In this document: in pieces, positions 5,591 through 20,394 of the stretch
Numbering within the stretch: the first letter of the stretch is position 1
How the letters are laid out: every line of letters begins with the position of its first letter
Source: Acetobacterium malicum
GTDB lineage: Bacteria > Bacillota > Clostridia > Eubacteriales > Eubacteriaceae
Assembly (NCBI RefSeq): GCF_014284495.1
Contig: NZ_WJBE01000001.1
Reading direction: 5' to 3' (one strand)
DNA length: 24,000 nt
Notes under the pieces: model-generated
The model's database searches: none
Told to the model about the DNA's origin: nothing
The model's input: the letters and a program-made list of their open reading frames with translations, nothing else
Made by a program: the position numbers and the translations under genes

Positions 5591-7921
5591 ATGAAACATG
5601 AAAAGAGTTTGTTAGCAAAGATCCTGATGACAGTTGTTTTACCAGTAGCATTAATATTTGGTGCAATTGCAGCTATTGCAATGGTGGTGACAAGTCAGAA
5701 TGTTGATCAGTTTGCAAAGATTCAAAACAATTTGTTGCTGATTTATGTAATCGGTTTAGCTGTTATTGTTGGTGTAATTGTATTGGGAATGAAAGATACC
5801 TCAAACAGAATAACCAGCCTGGCAGAGGCCGCTAAACGGATGGCGGATGGGGACATTGAAGTTGGGTTAAGATCTGATAAGCCTCAGGATCAGTTGGGAG
5901 AAATTGCTTATGCGCTTTCATTACTGGCGGAAAATAATAAGACGCAGTCGGAAATTGCAAAAAAACTGGCAGATGGAGATCTGTCAGAAACGATCAGCCC
6001 ACTATCGGATAAAGACCGGCTGGGAAGTAATTTAGTTGCGGCTCAAAAGTCGATGAAAAAACTCCTCGATTATTTTGTTATGATGCCGGAATTGGTCGAG
6101 AAAAAAGTGTATTATGACAAAAGTGTAGAAAATGACTTAGCCGGTGATTATAAAAAAGCTCTTGGGCAGGCAAATCAGGCCATGGCGACAGTCACCACAA
6201 ATATGGAATATTATTTAGCAATTCTGGATGCTTTACCGTACCGGGTGACCACCACCGATAAAGACATGAAAATGGTTTTTGTCAACAAAATTCTTGAAGA
6301 TCTGATGAAAATGACCGGCACGGCCGAAAAACGGGAAGACATTCGCGGTATCGATTGTCATACCTGTAATCTGGAAATGTGTCATACTGAGAACTGCGGC
6401 GTGACAATGCTAAATGGCAATGGGGATCAATTGAATGAACTTGGCTATGCCGAATATCGCTTTGAATTCCGCGAACGATATTATCGGATGGATACGATGA
6501 ACCTCATCGACAAAAATGGTGAAAAGATCGGTTATGTAGAAGTATCCCACGACACAACACCGGTAATGAGTGTAAATAATTATCGCAGCAATGCGGTAGT
6601 CCGACTGGCGGACAACCTGCATCGCTTATCGGAGGGAAATCTTGATCTTGATTTACATGTCGATGAACCAGGCCAGTATACTAATGAAGTGTATGCGCAA
6701 TTTAAAGCGATTGGAGATAGCTTGACGGAGGTGAAAAATACCATTGGCAATCTGATTGATGATGCAAGTATGCTGACCCATGCGGCAATTGATGGTCAGC
6801 TCGATGCCCGAGCGGATGAAACCAAATTCGCTGGCTCATGGCTGGAACTGATCAGTGGAATGAATGGTATTCTTGGTGAAATAGCGAAGCCGCTCCAAGA
6901 GGTCACGGATGTTATGGATGAGATTTCACAAGGGAATCTGAAAGTTACCGTAAACGGCTCTTATCGCGGGAGTTTTGATGAATTAAAACAGTCGGTTAAC
7001 TCAATGGGGAGCGGATTCAAAAAAATAGTAGGAGAAATTTCCACAGTAACCGAAGAAATCGGCAATGGAAATCTCAATTTGGAAAATGTCAGTTCCTTTG
7101 GTGGCGATTTCAATACGATTTCCGATGCTCTTAATACCATTATTGGAACGCTGAACTCGCTGTTGGGTGATATCAATCATGCTGCTGAACAGGTTAATGC
7201 CGGGGCCAATCAGGTCTCCGACAGCAGCCAGGCCCTGGCCCAGGGGTCGACTGAACAGGCCAGTTCGATTCAGGAACTGACTGCTTCGATTACCGAAATA
7301 GCTGACCAGACCAAGAATAACGCCGTCAACGCAAACAAGGCCAGAGAACTGGCTACCGATGTTATGGGTAACGCGGACAAAGGAAACCATCAGATGACCG
7401 AGATGCAGCAGTCGATGGTGGAAATCAACAAGTCATCGGAAGACATTTCCAAGATTATCAAGGTCATTGATGACATTGCCTTCCAGACCAATATTCTGGC
7501 GCTTAATGCGGCCGTTGAAGCCGCCCGGGCGGGACAGCATGGTAAAGGTTTTGCCGTGGTGGCAGAAGAAGTCCGCACCCTGGCCGCCCGTAGTGCTGAT
7601 GCTGCCAAGGAAACGACCGGCTTAATTGAAGGCTCCATCAGTAAGGTCGCCGAGGGGACAAAAATTGCCGATGAAACCGCCAGTGCCCTGGATGAAATTG
7701 TTGGCGGCATCGCCAAAGTTAACGATTTAATTGGCAACATCGCCACGGCATCCAATGAACAGGCGACCGGCATTGCTCAGATTAACATGGGTGTTGAGCA
7801 GGTTGCCCAGGTCGTTCAACAGAATTCGGCAACTGCTGAAGAAAGTGCAGCCGCCAGTGAAGAACTCTCCGGTCAATCGATCCTGTTAAAACAGATGATC
7901 GACCAGTTCCAATTGAGATAA
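5591..7921 (+). CDS. Methyl-accepting chemotaxis protein: TM hairpin, HAMP, Cys-rich PAS-like domain, poly-HAMP, MA domain
   Basis: RBS GAAGGAG upstream. Two TM helices are separated by only ~13 residues. HAMP-like segments follow ([43 protein letters not shown]). The canonical MCP signalling hairpin is present ([40 protein letters not shown]). Confidence 0.93.
7073..7921 (+). repeat. Near-identical 3' tract shared with the second MCP gene (copy A)
   Basis: Aligns without gaps to 9681-10529 at a constant offset of 2608. Positions 7271-7581 equal 9879-10189 with no difference over 311 bp. The flanks differ only by scattered, mostly synonymous substitutions. Confidence 0.9.
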
Positions 7922-8066: not shown

Positions 8067-8219
8067 ACTATCAATAATTAAATTATCCTGGCTGAATACC
8101 CTGGCTGTGAAGAGTAACAGCAACGAAATTTATATCGTTTAGTGGTATAATCCTTCCAAGAAGAGTGGTGACGAAAGAAAGAATTGCTTGATAAATAATT
8201 TAATCAAATGGAGGAAAGA

Positions 8220-10529
8220 ATGGAGCATGAAAAAAGTTTGCTGTCAAAAATCCTAATGACAGTTGTCCTACCGACCGTCCTGATTTTTTGCGTGACAGCA
8301 GGTATTTCAATGGTTGTCGTCAGTCAAAATTTCGACCAGTTTGGCGGTATCCAAAATAGTGTGTTGCTGATTTATGCCATCGGTATAGCGTTAATGGTTG
8401 GGGTAAGTGTAATCGGTGTAAAGGGAATATCGGATCGTTTAACTGGCCTGGCTGAGGCTGCTAACCGCCTGGCTGATGGAGAGGTTGAACTTGGTTTAAA
8501 AGTTGATAAACCTCAGGATCAGTTGGGGGAAGTTGCTTATGCACTTTCAGGTATTGCCAAGAGCATGAGATTACAGTCAGAAGCGGCTGGTAAACTGGCA
8601 AAGGGTGATCTGTCAGCAGCAATCATTCCGTCATCGGATAAGGATGTGGTTGGCAACAGTCTGCTAGAAGTCCAGTCATCCATTAAGATGATGAGTGATT
8701 ACCTGATACAACTACCCGAACTCGTTAAAAAGGAAGTGGATCTGAATAAAGTACAAGAAACTGAAATGATTGGCGATTATCAAAAAGGGATCGAACACGT
8801 CAATCAGGCGATCCAGATAGTAGCCGACAAACGCGATTTCTTCCAGGCGATTCTTGATGCGATGCCATACCGAATTACCGTTGTGGATAATGATTTGAAG
8901 TGGACATTTATTAATAAGACCCTTCAGGATCTGAGAATAGCAACCGGGCGCGAGGGCAGTCGCGAATCACTTTATGGTGATGACTGTTGTAAATCAAATC
9001 TGGACATGTGTAAAAATGAAGATTGTGGTGTCAAGGCGTACCGAAAAACAGGCCGAATTGAATTTCCGTTTGCATATCGTGGCGGATATTATCGTATGGA
9101 TACAACGCCGATTATTGACAAACAAGGTCAGACCATTGGCTATGTGGAAACTTCGTTTAACACAAGTGCAACGATGAGCGTCAACAATTATTCAGAAGTG
9201 GAAATTAATCGGCTGGCTGATAATTTAAGACGTTTATCAGCAGGAAATTTGGACTTTGACATGGATATTCAAGAACCAGGTGAATTTACTGGCGAGGTAT
9301 ATGAACAGTTTAAAGCGATTGAAACTAATCTGCGAGAAGTAAAAAATTCCATTGACAGCCTCATTGGCGACGCCATCATTCTGACAACGGCAGCAATGCA
9401 GGGAGACCTGGATGTTCGGGCCGATGAAACCAAATTCAGCGGTTCCTGGCAGGAGCTGATCAGCGGCATGAATGGCATTCTTAGCGTTATGGCAAAACCG
9501 ATGGAAGAGGTCGCGAATGTGATGGATGCCATTGCCAACGGCAATCTTGATGTGATGGTCGAAGGTTATTATCAGGGCAGCTTTGATGTCTTGAAACAGG
9601 CTGTCAATGAAATGGGAATTAACTTTAAAACTATTGTGACAGAGATTTCGACGGTTACCAGAGAAATAAGCAATGGGAACCTCAATTTGGAAAATGTCAG
9701 TTCCTTTGGTGGCGATTTCAACGCGATTTCTGACGCGCTCAATACTATTATTGCGACATTAAACTCGTTGTTGGGTGATATTAATCATGCCGCTGAGCAG
9801 GTTAATGCCGGAGCCAATCAGGTCTCTGACAGCAGCCAGGCCCTGGCCCAGGGTTCAACTGAACAGGCCAGTTCGATCCAGGAACTGACTGCTTCGATTA
9901 CCGAAATAGCTGACCAGACCAAGAATAACGCCGTCAACGCAAACAAGGCCAGAGAACTGGCTACCGATGTTATGGGTAACGCGGACAAAGGAAACCATCA
10001 GATGACCGAGATGCAGCAGTCGATGGTGGAAATCAACAAGTCATCGGAAGACATTTCCAAGATTATCAAGGTCATTGATGACATTGCCTTCCAGACCAAT
10101 ATTCTGGCGCTTAATGCGGCCGTTGAAGCCGCCCGGGCGGGACAGCATGGTAAAGGTTTTGCCGTGGTGGCAGAAGAAGTCCGCACCCTTGCCGCTCGAA
10201 GTGCTGATGCAGCCAAAGAAACGACCGGCTTAATTGAAGGCTCCATCAGTAAGGTCGCCGAGGGGACAAAAATTGCCGATGAAACCGCCAGTGCCCTGGA
10301 CGAAATTGTTGGCGGAATCGCCAAGGTTAATGATTTAATCGGCAACATCGCTACCGCATCCAACGAACAGGCGACCGGCATTGCTCAGATTAATATGGGT
10401 GTTGAGCAGGTTGCCCAGGTCGTTCAGCAGAATTCGGCAACCGCCGAAGAAAGTGCTGCCGCCAGTGAAGAACTCTCCGGCCAATCGATCCTGTTAAAAC
10501 AGATGATTGACCAGTTCCAGCTGAGATAA
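8220..10529 (+). CDS. Methyl-accepting chemotaxis protein, paralog of 5591-7921
   Basis: Same architecture as the first MCP. I chose the start ATG at 8220 (MEHEKSLL, aligning with MKHEKSLL of paralog 1) because GGAGG at 8210-8214 lies 5 nt upstream. The last ~280 aa are identical to paralog 1 apart from two substitutions (T/A and G/A) just inside the tract, whereas the sensor half is far more diverged by eye. Confidence 0.93.
9681..10529 (+). repeat. Near-identical 3' tract shared with the first MCP gene (copy B)
   Basis: Counterpart of 7073-7921; see that feature. Confidence 0.9.
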
Positions 10530-10560: not shown

Positions 10561-10587
10561 CCACCTTTTAATAAGGTGGCTTTTTTT
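10561..10587 (+). terminator. Rho-independent terminator of MCP gene 2
   Basis: CCACCTT / AAGGTGG stem with loop TTAAT, followed by CTTTTTTT and preceded by an A-run. Confidence 0.75.
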
Positions 10588-10602
10588 AGAAGGAAGATCA
10601 CC

Positions 10603-11937
10603 ATGAATCGATTAATTGCGAAACTGATACTTTTTACTGACTCAAGTCAGGAGCGTCTGCTTAAGCAGATGGGACAGCTCTATGAGCGTTTTTATCAAGG
10701 TGCAGATACCAGAGAAAGCCTGATTGCCGAAAGTTATCGACAAATAAAAGCACTGCTGGAAATTGCCACTGATTTTGGCTTTGATCGAAACCTCTGGCAT
10801 CATTACCTGACCTTTTTACTGATAACGAATGAAAACCCATTCAGTTTAACTTGTGAAAAGGTGGGGAAAAAAGAGGGCAGTGTTAACTTTTTTGCTCAAA
10901 ACGACTGCAAAATTTTTAAAGAGCTCTTTGATTTTGATTTCACCGAATTGGAATCAGCACTGGGAATTGATTGTTTCACCCGGGTTTCAAATTACCAGGC
11001 CATCAAAAAACCGGAATTTATGTACAATCAGAATGTCAGTGAAAAGGTGAAATCACTGAGTCTGAGATTAGCGGCTGCCGCAAACGAACAAGTATTTTTC
11101 GACGAAATCACGCAGTTCTATGGCGAATACGGAGTGGGTATGTTTGGATTGAACAAAGCCTTCCGGATCATTCCCAAAGTCGATAACACCGGAGTTATCT
11201 TTAACCCCATCAATAACATGGATAAGGTCATGCTGGCAGATTTGGTGGGATACGAAAATCAGAAACAAAAGCTTGTCGAAAATACCAAAGCCTTTGTTGA
11301 GGGACGAAAAGCCAACAATGTCTTGTTGTTTGGCGACAGCGGTACCGGTAAGTCCACCAGTATCAAAGCCATCGTCAACGAATTCTATCATCAGGGATTG
11401 CGGATGATCGAAATTTACAAACATCAATTTCGGGATTTATCAAATGTCATTGCCCAGATTAAAAACCGCAACTATCGGTTTATTATCTATATGGATGATC
11501 TTTCTTTTGAGGAATTTGAAATTGAGTACAAATTTCTGAAAGCTGTCATTGAAGGTGGCGTGGAAACAAAACCCGACAACATTTTGATTTATGCCACTTC
11601 AAATCGTCGCCATCTGATTCGCGAAACCTGGAACGACCGAAATGATATGGAAGCAAATGGCGAGATCCACCGCTCCGATACCATGCAGGAAAAGCTGTCG
11701 CTTGTCAATCGTTTTGGAGTCAGTATTTTTTATGAACGACCCAGTCAGAAACAGTACTTTGGCATCGTCGCCGAACTGGCCAGGCGGGAAGGCCTGAACA
11801 TCTCAGAAGAAGTTCTTTCCGGTGAGGCTAATAAATGGGAATTGCAGCATGGCGGAATTTCTGGCCGAACCGCCCAACAATTCATCAATCATTTGCTTTC
11901 TGTCGCTTCAGAGGAAAATTTAATGGATAAATGTTAA
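10603..11937 (+). CDS. DUF815-type P-loop (AAA-like) ATPase
   Basis: Walker A motif LFGDSGTGKST and Walker B-like IIYMDDLSF. The C-terminal half is typical of DUF815 ATP-binding proteins, and the N-terminal ~220 aa is helical and unassigned. I chose the start ATG at 10603 (MNRLIAK) because GAAGGAAG lies upstream. The GTG at 10576 lies inside the terminator stem. Confidence 0.75.
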   Translation: MNRLIAKLILFTDSSQERLLKQMGQLYERFYQGADTRESLIAESYRQIKALLEIATDFGFDRNLWHHYLTFLLITNENPFSLTCEKVGKKEGSVNFFAQNDCKIFKELFDFDFTELESALGIDCFTRVSNYQAIKKPEFMYNQNVSEKVKSLSLRLAAAANEQVFFDEITQFYGEYGVGMFGLNKAFRIIPKVDNTGVIFNPINNMDKVMLADLVGYENQKQKLVENTKAFVEGRKANNVLLFGDSGTGKSTSIKAIVNEFYHQGLRMIEIYKHQFRDLSNVIAQIKNRNYRFIIYMDDLSFEEFEIEYKFLKAVIEGGVETKPDNILIYATSNRRHLIRETWNDRNDMEANGEIHRSDTMQEKLSLVNRFGVSIFYERPSQKQYFGIVAELARREGLNISEEVLSGEANKWELQHGGISGRTAQQFINHLLSVASEENLMDKC

Positions 11938-12004: not shown

Positions 12005-12171
12005 TTGGCCTAATCTGCGTAAATTTTAGTAAGTTGGATATGAATAAAGTAAAGGGTATTAAGATTAATAAGGATTACAAATGAAAATCCATGGCTGGCA
12101 TACACAAAGCTGCGCAGCTTGAAGAATTTGGACTGATATTAACTGGAAGTGAAAAGAACAGGAGAAAGAAA

Positions 12172-13842
12172 ATGAAAATTAAATTTTTAGGAGCGGCACT
12201 ATCCGTAACTGGTTCCTGCCATCTGGTGACGACCGATCACTGTAAATTCCTCCTGGACTGCGGTTTGTTTCAAGGCAGTGAAGCCCTGGAAGAATTAAAC
12301 TATCAGGAGTTTGATTTTAATCCGGCAGAAATTGATTTTATAATTTTGAGTCATGCTCATGTGGATCATTGTGGGCGCATTCCCTTACTTGTCAAGCAGG
12401 GGTTCAAAGGAAAGATTTATTGCACCGGGGCAACCGCTGAAATAGCCGACATCATGCTTCAGGACAGCGGCAATATTCACGAAATGGATGCGAAATGGAT
12501 CAACAAACGCACCATCCGTTCTGGAAAGCGGCAGATTGCTCCACTTTACACCCAGGCAGATGCTGCCCGTTGTAGCCAATATTTCTTTCCGGTGGCATAT
12601 GGACAAACTTTTGAGATCAATCCTTGGATCAAGATCCGGCTCAATGAAGCAGGTCATATACTGGGGGCAGCAATCATTGAAATTTGGGCTGAAGATGACG
12701 GAAAAACCACCAAGCTTGTTTATTCAGGGGATATTGGGGCTGCCAATCAGCGGATGCTCAATAATCCGACTCTGATTGCAGCGGCTGATTATCTGATTAT
12801 GGAAACGACCTATGGGGATCGTGTCCATGAAACCCAACAGGAAAGTGGGAAACGTTTTCTGGATATCATTTTTAAAACCGTTGCACGGGGTGGAACTGTG
12901 GTGGCACCTGCCTTTGCTTTGGGACGAACCCAGGATCTGATCCATGAGCTGGAGCTGTTTTATGATAACCATGAACTACATCAGAATCAGCTTGATAAAG
13001 TCAATGTTTATGTTGACAGTCCGCTGGCTACCGATGCCACCGAAATTTTTCGGAAAAATGCCCACTATTTTAACGATAAAATAAAGGCGCGAATCAAAAA
13101 AGGTGAGGAGCTTTTTTATTTCAGAAATCTTTATTTTACCAAAAGCATCGATCAATCCAAGGCGTTAAACGATGATCCGGCACCTAAGATCATCATTTCA
13201 TCCAGTGGCATGGCTGATGCCGGCCGGGTTCAACATCATCTCAAGCACTATCTCTGGAAACCAAAATCGAGCATTGTTTTTGCTGGCTATCAGGCAGAGG
13301 GAACCACTGGACGGGCAATTACCAGCGGCGAAAAATATGTCCGGATCCTCCGTGAACGGATTCGTGTGAATGCGGAAATCTATTTTCTTGAGGGGTTCTC
13401 TGCTCATGCCGATAAAAATGATCTGCTCAAATGGTTGTCCGGGTTTAAAGAAAAGCCAAAGAAAATCTTTCTGGTACATGGGGAAGAAGAGCCAAAAAAA
13501 ATATTTGCGGAAACAGTCAAAAATATTCTCGGGTATGATTGTACAATCGTGGAAGATGTATCCGAATATGTTCTTGGAGAAGCTGAAGAAGTTGTTTGTG
13601 ATGGCATAAAAAGTCGGATTGATACAAAAAAACAACTGCTTCAAATAAAAACCAATTTACAAGATATGTCTGATGAGCTGGACTCGCTTTTGTCTGAGCC
13701 AGGTATGAAAACAAAAGAAATACTTACAAAAGAGAAAGTTGAAGATATTTCCGATCTTTCAAGTGACCTTGAAAAGATCCTGACGAAACTTAAATCAGTG
13801 GTTGGCGAAAAAGATTTGCAACAAGAAGAGAAAACGGATTGA
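12172..13842 (+). CDS. MBL-fold beta-CASP family hydrolase (CPSF/RNase J-like RNA-metabolising nuclease) with an acidic coiled-coil tail
   Basis: RBS AGGAGA before the ATG at 12172 (MKIKFLGA). Metallo-beta-lactamase motif HAHVDHCG. Beta-CASP/RMMBL-type C-terminal motifs (GFSAHAD, LVHGE). The last ~90 aa are low-complexity and Lys/Glu/Asp/Leu-rich. Confidence 0.8.
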   Translation: MKIKFLGAALSVTGSCHLVTTDHCKFLLDCGLFQGSEALEELNYQEFDFNPAEIDFIILSHAHVDHCGRIPLLVKQGFKGKIYCTGATAEIADIMLQDSGNIHEMDAKWINKRTIRSGKRQIAPLYTQADAARCSQYFFPVAYGQTFEINPWIKIRLNEAGHILGAAIIEIWAEDDGKTTKLVYSGDIGAANQRMLNNPTLIAAADYLIMETTYGDRVHETQQESGKRFLDIIFKTVARGGTVVAPAFALGRTQDLIHELELFYDNHELHQNQLDKVNVYVDSPLATDATEIFRKNAHYFNDKIKARIKKGEELFYFRNLYFTKSIDQSKALNDDPAPKIIISSSGMADAGRVQHHLKHYLWKPKSSIVFAGYQAEGTTGRAITSGEKYVRILRERIRVNAEIYFLEGFSAHADKNDLLKWLSGFKEKPKKIFLVHGEEEPKKIFAETVKNILGYDCTIVEDVSEYVLGEAEEVVCDGIKSRIDTKKQLLQIKTNLQDMSDELDSLLSEPGMKTKEILTKEKVEDISDLSSDLEKILTKLKSVVGEKDLQQEEKTD

Positions 13843-13899
13843 TAATCGGGTAAGATCATTTTTACAAGCAAATGAATAATGAAAAACACTCAGGAGGGT

Positions 13900-14703
13900 A
13901 TGATGAACAAAAAGTTTCAGGAAGCTGATGACAAATTAAAGGCTCAAATTCTTGACCAGATACCAGCCCCGGTCATGGCAGTTAATAAAGAACTGATAGT
14001 GATCTATATGAATGAAGCTGGCAAAAAATTAATAAAAAGAAGTGCAGAGGATATTATTGGAATTGCCTGCAAAGATATAATCTGCACCGATCAGTGTGGA
14101 ACTGACGATTGTGCCATGCTAAAAGCGATGAAGTCAGGGAAGACCTATGCTTCCCGAACCGAAGCAACCTTAGGCGGGCAAACGATTCCTTTAGAGTTTT
14201 CAGCAGTACCTCTGGTTGATGATAGCGGAGAGATCATTGGTGGCCTCGAATTTGTCTTGGACATTACAGAGCGAGTTCTATATGAGAATCGTCTCAAAGA
14301 ACAAAACCATACAATCCGAGAAATGTCCACACCGACAATTAAATTATGGGAAGGTGTTATGGTATTGCCGGTTGTGGGTGTTGTTGACTCAATGAGAGCT
14401 CAGCATATGATGGAAAGCATGCTGACAAAAATCGCTGAAACGTATGCAAAAGTAATTATTTTGGATATTCACGGTGTTGCAGCCGTGGATACGGCCGTAG
14501 CCAATCATTTGATTAAAATAACAAAAGCAACTAAATTGATGGGGTGTGATTGTATTTTGTCGGGAATTTCACCTGCCGTGGCGCAAACAATCATCCAATT
14601 AGGAATTGATATGGAAGCGATCAACACCCGGGCAACACTCAGTGATGCTTTGACTGAAGCATTTTTAATGTTAAATCTGGAAGTGAATAAGAAAAAACAG
14701 TGA
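13900..14703 (+). CDS. RsbR-like stressosome scaffold/sensor: Cys-rich PAS N-domain plus STAS C-domain
   Basis: RBS AGGAGGG before the ATG at 13900. N-terminal PAS-like fold with C-x4-C-x3-C-x4-C (nt 14068-14112). The C-terminal STAS domain has RsbR hallmarks (MSTPTIKLWEGVMVLPVVGVVDSMRAQ, LDIHGVAAVDT, SGISPAVAQTIIQLGID). Thr is present at the positions I align to the RsbR phospho-acceptors (VDT and AQT). Confidence 0.85.
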   Translation: MMNKKFQEADDKLKAQILDQIPAPVMAVNKELIVIYMNEAGKKLIKRSAEDIIGIACKDIICTDQCGTDDCAMLKAMKSGKTYASRTEATLGGQTIPLEFSAVPLVDDSGEIIGGLEFVLDITERVLYENRLKEQNHTIREMSTPTIKLWEGVMVLPVVGVVDSMRAQHMMESMLTKIAETYAKVIILDIHGVAAVDTAVANHLIKITKATKLMGCDCILSGISPAVAQTIIQLGIDMEAINTRATLSDALTEAFLMLNLEVNKKKQ

Positions 14704-14736
14704 AATAATATTTTTGATGGGAATAGGTTGAAAGTA

Positions 14737-15093
14737 ATGGGAGAAGACTATAATACATCCGTAACCGTGATAAAAAATAACCTGATTGTGGCATTTCCAG
14801 CAGAAATGACGGATTCGTGTATTCAAAACATCGAAAAAACAATTATTGATAAAACCTATCAGAAGAATATTCGGGGAGTACTTCTTAATTTTTCAATGGT
14901 GACTGTTATGGATACATATACATACCAGGCTTTTGAAAACATTACAAGGGTATTTTCATTGATGGGGATTCAGACAATCTGGGTAGGTTTGAATCCCGGG
15001 GTAGTTTTTGGTTTGATTGACTTGGACGTTGCGATTAATATAAGAATAAAAATGGCAATTAATCTTGAGATTGGTTTAACGTTGCTCAATTAG
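14737..15093 (+). CDS. RsbS-like single-domain STAS protein
   Basis: A ~118 aa STAS-only protein immediately after the RsbR-like gene. MVTVMDTYTYQAF aligns with the DxxS/T phospho-site loop of RsbS/SpoIIAA-type proteins. Start uncertain: ATG at 14737 or TTG at 14728. Confidence 0.75.
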   Translation: MGEDYNTSVTVIKNNLIVAFPAEMTDSCIQNIEKTIIDKTYQKNIRGVLLNFSMVTVMDTYTYQAFENITRVFSLMGIQTIWVGLNPGVVFGLIDLDVAINIRIKMAINLEIGLTLLN

Positions 15094-15117
15094 AGTAAAT
15101 GGTAAAACTGGTAAAAG

Positions 15118-15594
15118 ATGATGAAAATATCTGATGTATGTTTAACAAAAGAAATTAGCGAAAGAGTCAGGGTCAGAGAAACAAAAAAAATAGATCTTGT
15201 TTTTAGCCACGATAATGAGAACGTGGTTTATTCTGTTCGTAGTATTGCTAAAAAAGCTGGATTTCGTTTAACGGATGAGGTGTTAATAGCCGTAGCTGCT
15301 TCGGAACTATCGACAAATATTTTACGGTATGCTGGAACAGGCATAATTGAAGTAAGTATTGTTACCGATGAAGTCAGCCAGGCCAATGGGATTGAACTGT
15401 TTGCAAGCGATAAAGGACCGGGGATCAATGATATTGAACAGGCATTAACGGAAAACTACAGCTCACAGACAAATAGTTTGGGACAAGGTCTTCCGAGTGT
15501 GCAGCGAATCATGGACGAGTTCTATATCGAATCGGTTTCAGGCAAAGGAACGCGAGTGCTGACACGTAAATGGGTGGGATATGGAGAAAATTGA
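15118..15594 (+). CDS. RsbT-like GHKL serine/threonine kinase (anti-sigma regulatory factor family)
   Basis: N-box ASELSTNILRYAG, G1 box SDKGPGI, G2-like SLGQGLPSVQRIMDEF, and the typical small size (158 aa). Confidence 0.85.
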   Translation: MMKISDVCLTKEISERVRVRETKKIDLVFSHDNENVVYSVRSIAKKAGFRLTDEVLIAVAASELSTNILRYAGTGIIEVSIVTDEVSQANGIELFASDKGPGINDIEQALTENYSSQTNSLGQGLPSVQRIMDEFYIESVSGKGTRVLTRKWVGYGEN

Positions 15595-16168
15595 ATATGC
15601 AATGATACTCCGAGCGCTGCTGTGGGATGTTTCAGAATGCGGTGATCTCGGATATATTAAAGAATATGATAATAAGTGCTTTGTCTGTTTGATTGACATT
15701 CTTGGTCATGGCAAAATGGCAAGAAGTATTGCAGTTAATGCAGAAGAATATCTTGAAGCCAATTATCAACGCAACCTCATTGACGTCATGAACGGTCTCC
15801 ATAAACATTTATATGGTAGTAGAGGCGGAGTTGCCCTAATGTGTCGCCTGGATATACCAGCTGGGAAACTTCAGTATACAGGAATTGGTAATGTCACTGG
15901 AAGAGTAATCGGTTCCAATCAACATCGGATGCTTTCAAAAGATGGAATCGTGGGATTTGGAAGGATTAGTCCAATTATTCGAGAATGTGATTTTTCTGAT
16001 CGCGATCTCCTGATTCTCTATTCTGATGGTATTAAAGAGCACTTCAATTTGCTTGACCATTTGGCATTATTTACTGGCGAGACGGAATCAATCGCAAGTG
16101 GTGTTCTTAAAGAATTTGGCAAAAAAACTGATGATGCTTGCTGTATAGCGTTAAAGTATATTAAATAA
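15581..16168 (+). CDS. RsbX-like PP2C/SpoIIE-family phosphatase
   Basis: The metal-binding motifs CGD...DILGHG and ILYSDGI match small RsbX-type PP2C phosphatases. Size is 195 aa. It overlaps the RsbT-like gene by 14 nt. Confidence 0.8.
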   Translation: MEKIEYAMILRALLWDVSECGDLGYIKEYDNKCFVCLIDILGHGKMARSIAVNAEEYLEANYQRNLIDVMNGLHKHLYGSRGGVALMCRLDIPAGKLQYTGIGNVTGRVIGSNQHRMLSKDGIVGFGRISPIIRECDFSDRDLLILYSDGIKEHFNLLDHLALFTGETESIASGVLKEFGKKTDDACCIALKYIK

Positions 16169-16189: not shown

Positions 16190-19100
16190 ATGATCGAATT
16201 GGGTCATACACGGGTCGATAGTAATATTTCTTTGATCGAAGCAAGAAAAAAAGCAAGACATATTGCTTTAAAATTAGGATGTTCCGAAATTAAGGCAGCC
16301 CGAATTGAAGCAGTTTTATCGGAAATGATTCGGCAGTTGCTTAATGACACAAATATGGTTGACTGTATTATTTCAGTCATAAAAAACCAGGATAAAGAAG
16401 GCATTAATATCGCATATGATAACCTGGAGGTACCGTTTAGCTTGAATTGTGCTGAAAAATATGTGAATCCGTTTGAAATTCACGAAAAGCCGGATGGAAA
16501 ATACTTGGTAAATGTCTTTTTTCCTTTCATAACAGTCGAGCCAGATTTCTGTGAGAGCCTCGTCGAAGAAATTCGTATTGAAATTGAGTCACCGACAAGG
16601 GCAGAGTTACTCAAAGAAATTGAGGAAAAGAACAAAGAATTGGCGAGTAGCAGAGAGTTTATCGAATCAGTTCTGGAAAATTTACAGGCTGCAGTTTATG
16701 CAAAAGATTTAAATGGGAAATATACATATATTAACAAACAATGGGAAACGGTAACGGGGATTGATCGAGATGCCTGCATCGGAAAAACGGCGACGGACAT
16801 ATTCAGACCAGATCTTGGTGAAGCGTATGAAGAAAATGATCTCAATGTTATTAAATCAAAGAAAATTCAGATAATCGAAGAACACTCTAATCGGGAAGAA
16901 AACACACAAACCTATTTATCCACAAAAGTACCGATGAAACAGAATGATGATATTATCGGACTTTGTAGTATTTCTACAGATATCACTCAACGAAAAATTA
17001 TGGAAGAAGAGCTTTATAAAGCAAAAAAAACCGCTGAAGAGGCGGCCAAGTCCAAGTCCGATTTTTTGGCAAATATGAGCCATGAAATAAGAACCCCCAT
17101 GAATGCCATACTCGGAATGAGTTATTTAATGGAAAAAACTGATCTGTCCGAAAAACAGAAAGACTATCTCGGAAAAATAAGGTTGTCGGGGCAGCATTTG
17201 TTGGGTGTTATTAATGATATCCTGGACTTTTCAAAAATTGAGGCAGGGAAACTGGATATTGAATGCATTGATTTTAAATTATATGAGGTTTTGGATAATT
17301 TGTCCAATTGTATTAGTGAAAAATGTATGTCAAAAGGTTTGGAACTTGTCTTTGATGTTAATTCGAATGTTCCTAACGAACTATGTGGCGATCCGCTGCG
17401 AATTGGACAAATCCTGATTAACTATGTCAACAACGCCATAAAATTCACGGAACAAGGTGAAATTATTGTCAGAATAAGGAAAGAAGAAACGTTAGCCCAA
17501 GGATTTTTGTTGAAATTTGAAGTTCAGGATACCGGAATCGGCTTGACAACAGATCAGAAAGCTAAGTTATTCCAGTCTTCTCAACAAGCTGATACCTCGA
17601 CCACACGAAAATACGGTGGAACGGGATTGGGACTGGCTATTTCAAAAGATCTGGCGGAATTAATGGGTGGCGAAGTTGGTGTGGAATCAGAATATGGTAA
17701 AGGCAGTAATTTTTGGTTTACGACCCATTTTCGTGTCTCCGGCAAAACGGAGCAATCAATTATCTCAAATGAAGGGTTGGAAAATTTACGTGTATTGGTA
17801 GTCGATGATAATAATCAGGCCCGAATGATTCTATCGGAGATGTTAAATTCCATGAGAATTCGGGTGGATGAAGCAGGGTCGGGTGAGCGTGCCATCGAAA
17901 TGGTTCAAATGGAAGATTTGCGCCAAGATCCCTACGAAATTGTCTTCGTTGATATGCAGATGCCAAATTTAAATGGCATTCAAACTGTTGAACGATTAAG
18001 TCACATCAAACTGAAAAGCCCACCCAAATATGTGATGGTCACTGCTTTTGGAAGAGAAGAAGTATTTTGTAAAGCAGAACGGGCGGGATTTGAACTGGTT
18101 ATGGTCAAACCGGTTAATCTTTGGGTACTGTACGAAACGATGATTAGAATTCTTGAAAAAAACCGACTGAATGAGACCGTCGAAAAAAAAGAAGTTGAGA
18201 CGACCGGTCAAAGGAAAATTTTACAGACAATTTCCGGGGCTAGAATTTTGTTGGTGGAAGATAATGAGTTGAACCAGATGGTTGCACTTGAACTACTTAA
18301 AGAGGCCGGACTGATTGTAGATGTGGCAGAAAATGGTCGGATTGCCGTGGAAATGGTGGCTGAAAATGAATATGATCTGGTTCTGATGGATATGCAGATG
18401 CCGGTACTGGATGGGCTTGAAGCGACCAGGCGGATTCGTTCAGATAGTCGATTTGCGGAACTGCGGATAATTGCGATGACTGCCAATGCAATGGCAAATG
18501 ATCGCGAACGTTGTATCGCTGCCGGAATGAATGACCATTTGCCTAAACCGATTGAACCGAATCATTTGTTTGAAATACTAGCGCATTGGATACCATCAAG
18601 AACAAATATTAATGTTTCAGATGACTGTATCGGTGATACTGATGATGCGGTTTTTCCAGAAGCGGAATTAAACATCAGAATCAGTGGTCTGGACGTTGAA
18701 TTGGGTCTACGGCGGGTTCTCGGTAAGAAAAAACCGTATCTAAATTTGCTGAGAAAATTTATGGCCGGACAACCGAGTTTCATAACAGACCTGGATCAGG
18801 CAGTCAGCAATGGCGATTATACCACCGCTGAGAGGCTTGTCCATACATTAAAAGGGGTATCTGGGAATATTGGGGCAATCGAAATAAGAGAAACGGCAAC
18901 GATTCTTGAGACCGCAATCCGTGAACAACCAAGTAAGGATACATTAAGACCGCTCATTAAAAATCTGGCTACGCAGTTAAAAAAGCTGACTGAATCATTG
19001 CAAACGGCGTTGCCAAAAGAAAAAAAAGCTGTTGACGACAGCGATACTGCTTCCACGAAGGTTGAACTAATACGTTTTTTAGAAGAACTTATGCCGGGGA

Positions 19101-19276
19101 TTCAAACACGGAAACCAAAAAAATGTCTCGATGTTCTTGAAACTTATCGTAAATTTTTATGGCCAGATGAAAGCGAAATCGAAGTCGCTGAGATCTATCG
19201 ACTTGTTTCCAAATATCGATATAAGGAAGCCGCTGAACGCGTAAATTCCTTATTAATCAAATTAAGTGAGGTTTGA
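16190..19276 (+). CDS. Hybrid sensor histidine kinase: degenerate RsbT-like N-domain, coiled coil, PAS, HisKA, HATPase_c, REC, REC, Hpt
   Basis: RBS GAGGTAGAG upstream. H-box [14 protein letters not shown] with His298 at nt 17081-17083. N/G boxes ([27 protein letters not shown]). Two receivers retain the acidic pocket, phospho-Asp, Thr and Lys (VVDDN...FVDMQMP...VTAF...VKP; LVEDN...LMDMQMP...MTAN...PKP). Hpt motif [12 protein letters not shown]. Confidence 0.92.
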
Positions 19277-19278
19277 TT

Positions 19279-20394
19279 ATGAAGAAATTGTCAGAGTGTA
19301 ATATTCTAATCGTCGATGATACAGAAATGAATATTGACATATTGGTTGGTGCGCTGGGAGACGACTATGAACTGTCAGTGGCAATGGATGGGGAAGCTGC
19401 TCTCGAAATGATGGAAATGGAGCTTCCCGATTTAATCTTACTGGACATCATGATGCCAGGATTGAGTGGCTATGAAGTTTGTGAAAAACTTAAAAATAAT
19501 CCCAGAGCGAAAGAAATCCCGATTATTTTCCTGACTGCGATGACTGACATCGAAAGTAAAACAAAAGGGTTTGAAGCTGGGGCCGTCGATTATATTACCA
19601 AACCATTTGAAATACTGGAAGTCAAAGCACGGGTACAGACCCATCTGTACATCACGATTGCAAAAAAAGAGTTAGCTCTGCAGAATGAAATACTTGAGCA
19701 ACGGGTTATAGAACGAACGGAAGAATTGTGCCTGACTCAGGAAATTACCATTGAAGCGCTAGCCTCACTGGCTGAATATCGAGATCCGGATACGGGGGGA
19801 CATATTTATCGTACCAAAAATTATGTAAAAATTCTGGCTGAAAAACTAAGTTCCGTTGAAAAATATAAAAATATTCTAAATGAGGAAGTCATCAAAATAT
19901 TTTACAAGTCGGCACCACTCCATGACATTGGCAAAATCGGTATTCGCGACGAAATTCTTCTAAAACCAGGTAAGTTGACCGTTAAGGAATTTGAAGAAAT
20001 GAAAAAACATACTTTGATTGGTTATAATGCTCTTCGAATTGCGTCATTAAAGCTTGGTGAGAATTCATTTTTGAAACATGCCATGGAGATTTCAAAAAGT
20101 CATCAGGAAAAATGGAATGGGACCGGCTATCCGGATGGTTTGTCTGGCGATGATATCCCCATAGCTGGGAGAATCATGGCGATTGCGGATGTGTATGATG
20201 CACTCATCAGTAAGCGGATTTATAAACCGCCATTTACGCACCGGCAGGCGGTCGTGATTATTAAAGAAGGCCGGGGTATTCATTTTGATCCGCTGATGGT
20301 TGATGCTTTTGAAGATGTTAATGAAGAATTCCGGCAAATTGCGATTAAATATGCCGATTGTGATGAGGAACGAGTGACTTTAAATGAAGTGTAG
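19279..20394 (+). CDS. Response regulator with HD-GYP c-di-GMP phosphodiesterase output (RpfG-like)
   Basis: REC domain (ILIVDDTEMN...LILLDIMMPG...LTAM...TKP) followed by HD-GYP (HDIGKIGI...HQEKWNGTGYPDGL). The ATG at 19279 starts 2 nt after the kinase stop, with AAGTGAGG as RBS. Confidence 0.9.
   Translation: MKKLSECNILIVDDTEMNIDILVGALGDDYELSVAMDGEAALEMMEMELPDLILLDIMMPGLSGYEVCEKLKNNPRAKEIPIIFLTAMTDIESKTKGFEAGAVDYITKPFEILEVKARVQTHLYITIAKKELALQNEILEQRVIERTEELCLTQEITIEALASLAEYRDPDTGGHIYRTKNYVKILAEKLSSVEKYKNILNEEVIKIFYKSAPLHDIGKIGIRDEILLKPGKLTVKEFEEMKKHTLIGYNALRIASLKLGENSFLKHAMEISKSHQEKWNGTGYPDGLSGDDIPIAGRIMAIADVYDALISKRIYKPPFTHRQAVVIIKEGRGIHFDPLMVDAFEDVNEEFRQIAIKYADCDEERVTLNEV

Follow-up and report, generated by a model that had tools for sequence, protein, structure and literature searches.

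The hybrid histidine kinase encoded at 16190-19276 of the window (the whole stretch of 24,000 nucleotides of Acetobacterium malicum DNA that was analysed; RefSeq assembly GCF_014284495.1, contig NZ_WJBE01000001.1) begins with a domain, residues 1-118 of its 1028 (positions 16190-16543, plus strand), that is very probably a paralogue of the stressosome serine kinase RsbT no longer able to bind ATP. Together with a conserved connector (residues ~119-158), the domain makes up a portable N-terminal input module, found in RsbT-containing operons at the place otherwise taken by the RsbT-binding domain RsbU_N. The module is probably what links the stressosome to the output enzyme.

Relationship of the kinase N-terminus to RsbT

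Pfam makes no assignment within residues 1-155 of the kinase, and residues 1-118 match no Pfam or NCBIfam model; at a threshold of E <= 10, Pfam searches of 14 members of the domain family returned neither a GHKL match nor any other consistent one. Searches of PDB sequences with the domain, as a single sequence and as a profile, gave nothing relevant. BLASTP against the RsbT encoded in the same window likewise gave nothing (E = 20), a result explained by the low identity over residues 7-76, which amounts to 23% with classical RsbT and to 17% with the RsbT type of the same operons. The first-pass annotation, made from the sequence by eye, had read the segment ending at 16534 as a degenerate RsbT-like GHKL domain fused to the hybrid kinase. 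Profile searches in both directions, profile-profile alignment and structural comparison all bear this reading out, and place the end of the domain slightly farther on, at 16543. A hidden Markov model (HMM) of the domain, run against all open reading frames (ORFs) of a sample of 80 RsbT-centred metagenome loci, scores the classical 134-amino-acid RsbTs from soil at approximately 45 bits, with HMM positions 6-78 aligned to RsbT residues 7-79. The same model gives 32.8 bits to RsbT of Listeria monocytogenes (7-77 on 7-77) and 0.3 bits to Listeria RsbW. Conversely, an HMM of 66 classical RsbTs gives 32.8 bits to the window domain and recovers each of the 31 family members (median, 19.4 bits), whereas the highest score among 620 composition-matched shuffled controls is 3.9 bits. 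The RsbT encoded in the window matches the domain poorly (12 bits with the domain HMM); the likeness is to classical RsbT. When the domain alignment was compared by hhalign with seven co-operonic RsbTs, domain residues 21-77 were matched to RsbT residues 39-96 (79% probability, E = 1.6e-5), that is, over the α1-α2(N-box)-β-β region that had originally been aligned by eye. An exhaustive phmmer search of 1.84 billion cluster representatives yielded 13 relatives of varied architectures, each matched at its extreme N-terminus. Word-index homologue searches returned 0, 2 and 1 proteins and are no gauge of family size. The homology indicated by these comparisons is to RsbT rather than to RsbW.

The homology with RsbT of Bacillus subtilis and Listeria (Pfam HATPase_c_2) covers β1-α1-α2-β2-β3 in the same residue numbering. 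Shared residues include R19, K21, R23, L29-G30, S44-E45 and R48, and the C-terminal FFDxF...DG of the domain aligns with LMDEF...GxGT of RsbT. Particular to the domain are the sequence MIELG at its very N-terminus and E40; R38 is also present in Listeria RsbT and is replaced by Leu in the soil RsbTs. Both proteins are encoded in rsbRST operons, the domain being fused to an output enzyme whereas RsbT is free. A template-free AlphaFold2 model computed from a 14-sequence alignment reached a predicted local distance difference test (pLDDT) score of 83 and a predicted template modelling (TM) score of 0.75; the single-sequence model (pLDDT 51) was unusable. The model consists of β1 (2-9), α1 (12-28), α2 (33-53), β2 (57-66), β3 (69-79), a short helix (88-91), β4 (95-99), β5 (105-112) and helices 122-133 and 137-151. 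In a Foldseek search of the PDB, the top 20 matches were all RsbW, SpoIIAB, UsfX or SiaB, with E-values of 5e-4 to 2e-2, probability 1.00 and target-normalised TM scores of up to 0.74. The predicted fold is thus that of the anti-sigma kinases (GHKL), an α/β fold of Bergerat type. These four proteins are the best structural matches, yet the domain has no detected sequence match to them (see the RsbW score and the PDB profile search above), and they bind ATP and sigma factors whereas the domain lacks the ATP-binding motifs.

Nucleotide binding in the GHKL superfamily is defined by the N-box, G1 and G2 motifs. When 25 domains and 90 RsbTs are aligned together, the N-box Asn is found in none of the domains (the window copy has Q49) against 89 of the RsbTs (24/24, 33/34 and 32/32 in the individual RsbT classes). 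The G1 motif DxGPG, seen in every RsbT class shown, is missing from all domains, and its columns are gapped in 24 of 25. The G2 motif SLGxGLP, which the RsbTs have, is also missing from every domain, with no GxGxG-like motif present, and some 21 alignment columns corresponding to the ATP lid are deleted. A replaced N-box Asn, a lost G1 box and a shortened lid/G2 segment had each been proposed for the window copy; all three prove to be properties of the family. Because of these losses the domain is classed as a pseudokinase, and both ATP binding and serine kinase activity are predicted to be absent, unlike in RsbT, which has all of these elements. Descent and fold place the domain in the RsbT/HATPase_c_2 lineage, but with every catalytic motif gone it is a pseudokinase derivative of that lineage and not a functional member. 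That this would be a previously undescribed way of coupling a stressosome to its output, as first suggested, agrees with the lack of a Pfam or NCBIfam model and with literature searches, in which no earlier description of the domain was found.

It might be argued that the resemblance to RsbT is fortuitous, given the null BLASTP result against the RsbT of the operon and the lack of a Pfam match even at the relaxed threshold, or that the domain is an atypical kinase that is still active. Two-way HMM scores of 33-46 bits against a ceiling of 3.9 bits for shuffled sequences, and a Foldseek top 20 drawn from a single family, speak against the former; the latter is contradicted by the disappearance of every ATP-binding motif from every member. 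As far as sequence analysis reaches, both ideas are refuted, and we consider them far-fetched.

The domain is always N-terminal and always followed by the conserved connector, which consists of an acidic helix (~122-133), a helix cap S/T-R-x-E-L and a coiled-coil helix (137-158). Positions S/T136, E139, L140, K147, N148 and L151 are conserved (27-31 members). The heptad runs a141, d144, a148, d151, position a148 being Asn in 24 of 27. An Asn buried at an "a" position typically marks coiled coils that form parallel dimers.

The operon slot shared with RsbU_N

The window cluster is co-directional, and the order RsbR-RsbS-RsbT-RsbX is that of a stressosome module (Pfam assignments, 13879-16168). 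Its features are:

13879-14703, plus strand: RsbR-like co-antagonist, 274 amino acids (Pfam PAS_4 1.9e-17, STAS 3.7e-16)
14728-15093, plus strand: RsbS-like STAS scaffold protein, 121 amino acids (Pfam STAS 5.3e-8)
15118-15594, plus strand: RsbT-type serine kinase, 158 amino acids (Pfam HATPase_c_2, HATPase_c)
15581-16168, plus strand: RsbX-like single-domain PP2C phosphatase, 195 amino acids (Pfam SpoIIE 3.5e-6)
16190-19276, plus strand: hybrid histidine kinase ORF, 1028 amino acids (Pfam)
16190-16543, plus strand: RsbT-derived predicted pseudokinase domain, residues 1-118 (HMMs in both directions, hhalign, AlphaFold, Foldseek)
16544-16663, plus strand: connector with acidic helix, helix cap and coiled-coil helix (conservation, heptad, model)
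16655-19276, plus strand: output part of the kinase, with PAS, HisKA, HATPase_c, two REC and Hpt (Pfam)
19273-20394, plus strand: REC-HD-GYP response regulator, putative cyclic di-GMP (c-di-GMP) phosphodiesterase (Response_reg 6e-27, HD_5 1e-26)

In a survey of RsbT-seeded loci, the domain was found in 27 loci, RsbU_N in 34 and both in none, RsbU_N being detected with an HMM built from the output segments that follow classical RsbT-RsbX in these loci. In both types of locus, the domain or RsbU_N heads the first gene 3' of rsbT/rsbX. From the zero overlap it follows that the domain occupies the RsbU_N slot, and on account of this position it is taken as the element coupling the output enzyme to the stressosome. 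The RsbU_N outputs recovered were RsbU_N-HisKA_3-HATPase with a LuxR regulator, RsbU_N-HisKA-HATPase-REC and RsbU_N-PAS-HisKA. RsbU_N (PF08673) is the RsbT-binding input of RsbU, MtG and some histidine kinases (PMC12143880, PMC9237108). It resembles the domain in its N-terminal place in the operon, in its range of outputs (histidine kinases, hybrid histidine kinases, PP2C phosphatases and cyclase-type enzymes) and in leading through a helical linker to an effector that is dimeric. The folds are unrelated, a four-helix bundle as opposed to α/β GHKL, and RsbT has R19 and K21 in RsbU_N operons but lacks them in domain operons. The possibility that the domain is itself a form of RsbU_N was ruled out, as there is no profile match and the predicted fold is α/β and not a helical bundle. 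The HMM of the full module found no matches among the RsbU_N outputs, and no likeness of the connector to RsbU_N or to its linker was seen. The domain is a positional analogue of RsbU_N and not a member of that family.

The proteins that carry the domain are hybrid kinases with or without PAS, plain HisKA-HATPase kinases, and class III (adenylate) cyclases, again with or without PAS. Both cyclase-type carriers have a gene for a 133-amino-acid hemerythrin directly after them (L004:4288-4689; L005:9329-9730), which suggests an accessory linked to oxygen or iron in the cyclase-type operons. At L023:6969-9026 the domain forms the N-terminus of a PAS-PAS-PP2C (SpoIIE-family) phosphatase; this output resembles RsbU, with the dead RsbT domain in the place of RsbU_N. 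A variant operon (L009:2059-6931; GCA_029262255.1) encodes two single STAS proteins, a 276-amino-acid STAS-RsbT fusion and a PP2C, and continues with a histidine kinase bearing two tandem copies of the domain, a REC protein and a KaiB-family protein. At L014:1760-2979 the domain is a stand-alone ORF of 186 amino acids followed by a separate 217-amino-acid HisKA-HATPase gene, while a close relative (L077:2283-3590) has domain and kinase in one protein of 435 amino acids; the two genes of L014 may be truly separate, or a frameshift or assembly error may have divided them.

The first-pass annotation had raised the question of whether the domain occurs only in RsbRST neighbourhoods. Contexts free of seeding bias were obtained by starting from the domain protein and then reading its neighbours (n = 11 look-ups). 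In 10 of the 11, two STAS genes, rsbT and usually rsbX lie immediately 5' of the domain gene, so that the domain is tied to RsbRST neighbourhoods in these; the single exception is P0005 (L098:4045-6090), which has no rsbRST in the 4 kb of upstream contig. Upstream of P0005, this 8-kb contig encodes a dCache sensor and a protein with PAS-GGDEF-EAL domains, and separate genes encode the Hpt, REC and HD-GYP parts. An rsbRST set may lie farther upstream, past the contig end at 4 kb. RsbX is absent between rsbT and the output gene in L020, L026, L077 and L100 (L100:4391-5001).

Within the window operon, the overlaps of rsbT with rsbX (14 nucleotides, 15581-15594) and of the kinase stop with the response-regulator start (4 nucleotides, 19273-19276) are consistent with translational coupling. 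The Pfam limits in the kinase are PAS 156-269, HisKA 288-353 (7.7e-21), HATPase_c 400-513 (1.6e-25), two REC domains (1.5e-48) and Hpt 853-932 (2.9e-12). The RsbT has intact N-box (SELSTN), G1 (DKGPG) and G2 (SLGQGLP) motifs, which identify it by sequence as a catalytically intact kinase; it lacks the classical switch residues, having V, S and T at the equivalents of R19, K21 and R48. Most RsbTs of domain operons carry an N-terminal extension of ~10-25 residues that the classical 134-amino-acid RsbTs do not have, but those of L014, L025 and L077 measure 132-133 amino acids, so that the extension is not universal. The MDT motif of the window RsbS aligns to the IDS phosphosite of Listeria RsbS, and the site is kept in 22 of 23 RsbS proteins from operons carrying the domain. 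In the RsbR-like protein, loss of the phosphosite had been suspected from the sequence DIHGV; this was ruled out by the presence of a VDT motif, which we take to be the phosphorylation site by analogy with T171 of B. subtilis RsbR. The RsbX-like gene has the same position in related loci, and a REC-HD-GYP gene is also next after the kinase in L010, L011, L012, L095, L096 and L099. The nearest genomes are Acetobacterium metagenome-assembled genomes (95, 92 and 64% identity), in which the gene order is unchanged. Nine of 19 RsbS proteins of domain operons (L010, L014, L017, L019, L022, L023, L024, L026 and L077), encoded just 5' of rsbT, end in a poly-acidic C-terminal tail of 34-59 residues with a net charge of -8 to -29; such a tail occurs in none of 20 RsbS proteins of RsbU_N-type operons, and the window RsbS has none.

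The system is also carried by two Vibrio chromids, filed in a plasmid collection, one with a clear member of the domain family and one with a divergent member. In the V. aquimaris operon, genes for a triple-PAS RsbR, RsbS, RsbT and RsbX precede those for a hybrid kinase, whose copy of the domain is clear (89 bits), and for a REC-HD-GYP protein. That of Vibrio sp. THAF191d encodes a protoglobin-STAS RsbR, RsbS, RsbT, RsbX, a PAS hybrid kinase of 1057 amino acids and a REC-HD-GYP protein; the kinase has the architecture of the window kinase, and the two operons match gene for gene from the kinase on. The N-terminus of the THAF191d kinase scores 24 bits over HMM positions 11-155 (hhalign, 92.8%, E = 3.9e-7, 131 columns). 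It is a very divergent copy in which the R-x-K motif is kept and the connector is best conserved and alone scores well by itself; in the Vibrio L096 kinase it is the connector that matches best. R19 and K21 are missing from the RsbT of each Vibrio operon as well. No interaction of VvRsbT with the output kinase VvD1 was obtained in Vibrio vulnificus, and among stressosome outputs in general RsbU_N is present on only some, most, VvD1 included, having no recognisable RsbT-binding domain (Heinz et al. 2022, PMC9237108). The protoglobin-STAS RsbR of the VvD1 system, the V. vulnificus type, is shared with the THAF191d operon, the window RsbR sensing through PAS instead. Judging from the operon architecture of these other Vibrio, the domain may extend to VvD1.

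Switch residues and candidate mechanisms

The residues that the dead domain has kept are those that its co-operonic RsbT has lost. Arg19 is present in 23 of 25 domains and in all 34 RsbTs associated with RsbU_N outputs, but in none of 24 RsbTs from domain operons, which have V, I or S. Position 21 is Lys in all 25 domains and Lys or Arg in 22 of the 34 RsbTs with RsbU_N outputs; in the RsbTs of domain operons its four commonest residues, V (6), S (5), T (4) and E (3), make up 18 of 24 and none is basic. For Arg48 the corresponding figures are 21/25, 33/34 and 3/24, the position being Thr in the other 21. R23 is kept in all classes (17/25 in the dead domain), and position 24 of the dead domain is not Asn. 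On these counts, switch surface and catalytic site, joined in classical RsbT, appear here divided between two paralogues. SpoIIAB R20, the equivalent of R19, contacts the STAS protein SpoIIAA, and Hardwick's 2007 work is reported to have found that the RsbS- and RsbU-binding surfaces on RsbT overlap. Partner binding has been assigned to R19, R23 and N24 of B. subtilis RsbT, and all three are buried in the modelled RsbT-RsbU interface (PMC12143880, citing Hardwick 2007). The kinase-dead RsbT variant D78N retains binding to RsbS and RsbU (PMC11821858), and RsbT binding is therefore separable from catalysis.

It seems conceivable, and we tentatively prefer this reading at just short of an even chance, that the two jobs of RsbT are split between the two paralogues and that the output enzyme docks on STAS domains. 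The free RsbT of domain operons would have kept catalysis and lost the switch-surface residues, while the dead copy on the output enzyme would have kept that surface (R19-x-K21-x-R23 in helix α1, plus R48). Through it the kinase itself would dock on the unphosphorylated STAS domains of RsbS/RsbR, as classical RsbT does. Upon a signal, active RsbT would phosphorylate the STAS sites, and the dead domain would be released or repositioned; the change would pass via the parallel dimeric coiled coil to the PAS-DHp (dimerisation and histidine phosphotransfer) core, altering autophosphorylation and, through REC-Hpt, the HD-GYP response regulator. RsbX would reset the system. Since the RsbS phosphosite is kept and RsbT appears catalytically intact, STAS phosphorylation would still be the switch. 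The domain would act by binding and not by catalysis, its state being passed to a dimeric effector through a coiled coil, in analogy to the logic described for RsbU_N (PMC12143880).

Docking on STAS domains is favoured over RsbT binding because the partner surface is conserved, RsbU_N is absent, and the VvRsbT-VvD1 test was negative. The kept switch residues fit a docking role but do not by themselves give the identity of the partner. Several observations weigh against STAS docking. The lid, which contributes to the STAS interface of SpoIIAB-SpoIIAA complexes, is missing from the domain. STAS must still be engaged by a co-operonic RsbT that has neither R19 nor K21, and these residues are thus not obligatory for STAS recognition. 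The residue classes compared above are probably clades, and their contrast probably reflects few evolutionary events, so that the counts are not independent observations. Between the charge of the acidic RsbS tail and the net charge of the domain there is no co-variation (rho 0.07); with the charge of RsbT the tail shows a weak correlation (rho -0.47, p 0.03, uncorrected for phylogeny), and the charge correlations do not separate the models. P0005, with its domain and no rsbRST within reach, is a further point on this side, as is the documentation of R19, R23 and N24 as RsbU-binding residues (PMC12143880).

We regard as rather unlikely a mechanism where the dead domain is a receptor for released RsbT and a functional analogue of RsbU_N. 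Kinase and pseudokinase would form a heterodimer through the ancestral dimer interface of their kinase family, and RsbT binding would rigidify or re-register the coiled coil and so switch the kinase. The domain sits in the exact RsbU_N slot and is mutually exclusive with RsbU_N, the co-operonic RsbT has a remodelled helix α1 (R19 to V/I) and is often N-terminally extended, which could reflect a changed partner, and coiled-coil logic fits the RsbT-RsbU mechanism (PMC12143880). The negative outcome of the VvRsbT-VvD1 interaction test (PMC9237108) argues against RsbT as the partner, a Vibrio kinase built like VvD1 having a divergent copy of the domain. The receptor model also leaves unexplained why a dead domain should conserve the partner-binding residues of RsbT itself. 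RsbW and SpoIIAB, the closest structural relatives, are homodimers, and a duplicated RsbT would then have begun with an affinity for RsbT; homodimerisation of RsbT is, for its part, not established.

Improbable in our view is a role as a phosphorylation target or pseudo-substrate platform, in which RsbT would transiently phosphorylate the module or its connector, for instance at S/T136, the fold serving solely as a dimerisation scaffold. All 27 members do have S or T at position 136, and 30 of 31 have S44, but S/T136-x-x-E139 looks like an ordinary helix N-capping box, the RsbT substrates known so far are STAS domains, and the conservation of R19, K21, R23 and R48 would be left unexplained. 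We give an equally small chance to the idea that the module mimics an RsbT:RsbU_N complex in cis, the basic α1 surface packing, within one dimer, against the acidic helix (122-133) and the coiled coil. In that case the domain would be a built-in activator or dimeriser, regulation entering elsewhere, e.g. through PAS. Acidic helix and coiled coil do always follow on the 3' side of the domain, the published model has RsbT touching the RsbU linker (PMC12143880), and one member has no adjacent rsbRST; the near-obligate place of the domain after rsbRST(X), even on outputs without PAS, argues instead for a stressosome input.

Stressosomes are widespread, and the sole output route understood is that from RsbT to RsbU_N. 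A candidate for the missing coupling element is now at hand in a module of ~150 residues with the surface R19, K21, R23, R38 and R48 and a coiled-coil connector, placed in the RsbU_N operon slot and carried by output enzymes of four or more kinds. It defines a new domain family for annotation and a clean prokaryotic pseudokinase derived from its partner kinase. If STAS docking applies, there may exist, though the odds are somewhat against it, a class of stressosomes reaching from Bacillota to Vibrio in which the mobile switch, captured and released by the STAS scaffold, is the output enzyme itself and not free RsbT. With similar reserve, RsbT may be pictured as having been duplicated, one copy remaining catalytic and shedding the switch surface, the other becoming ATP-blind, keeping the surface and being fused, by way of a coiled coil, to kinases, cyclases and phosphatases. 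If true, this would answer how stressosomes without RsbU_N outputs, including those of V. vulnificus VvD1/VvD2, signal onward (Heinz et al. 2022, PMC9237108), and would provide a bacterial example of kinase/pseudokinase subfunctionalisation.

Neighbouring genes in the window

Tandem paralogous methyl-accepting chemotaxis proteins of 776 and 773 amino acids (HAMP_2 and MCPsignal) are encoded at 5591-7921 and 8208-10529; the N-terminal regions of both, ~400 residues long, have no Pfam match at E <= 1e-5. They are followed by genes for a DUF815 AAA-type ATPase (10576-11937) and a beta-CASP/RMMBL metallo-beta-lactamase-fold RNase-like protein (12091-13842), the latter stopping 37 bp before rsbR. 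The gene at the window edge (9-1424) encodes a PAS-GGDEF-HD-GYP protein, a second c-di-GMP enzyme close to the operon.

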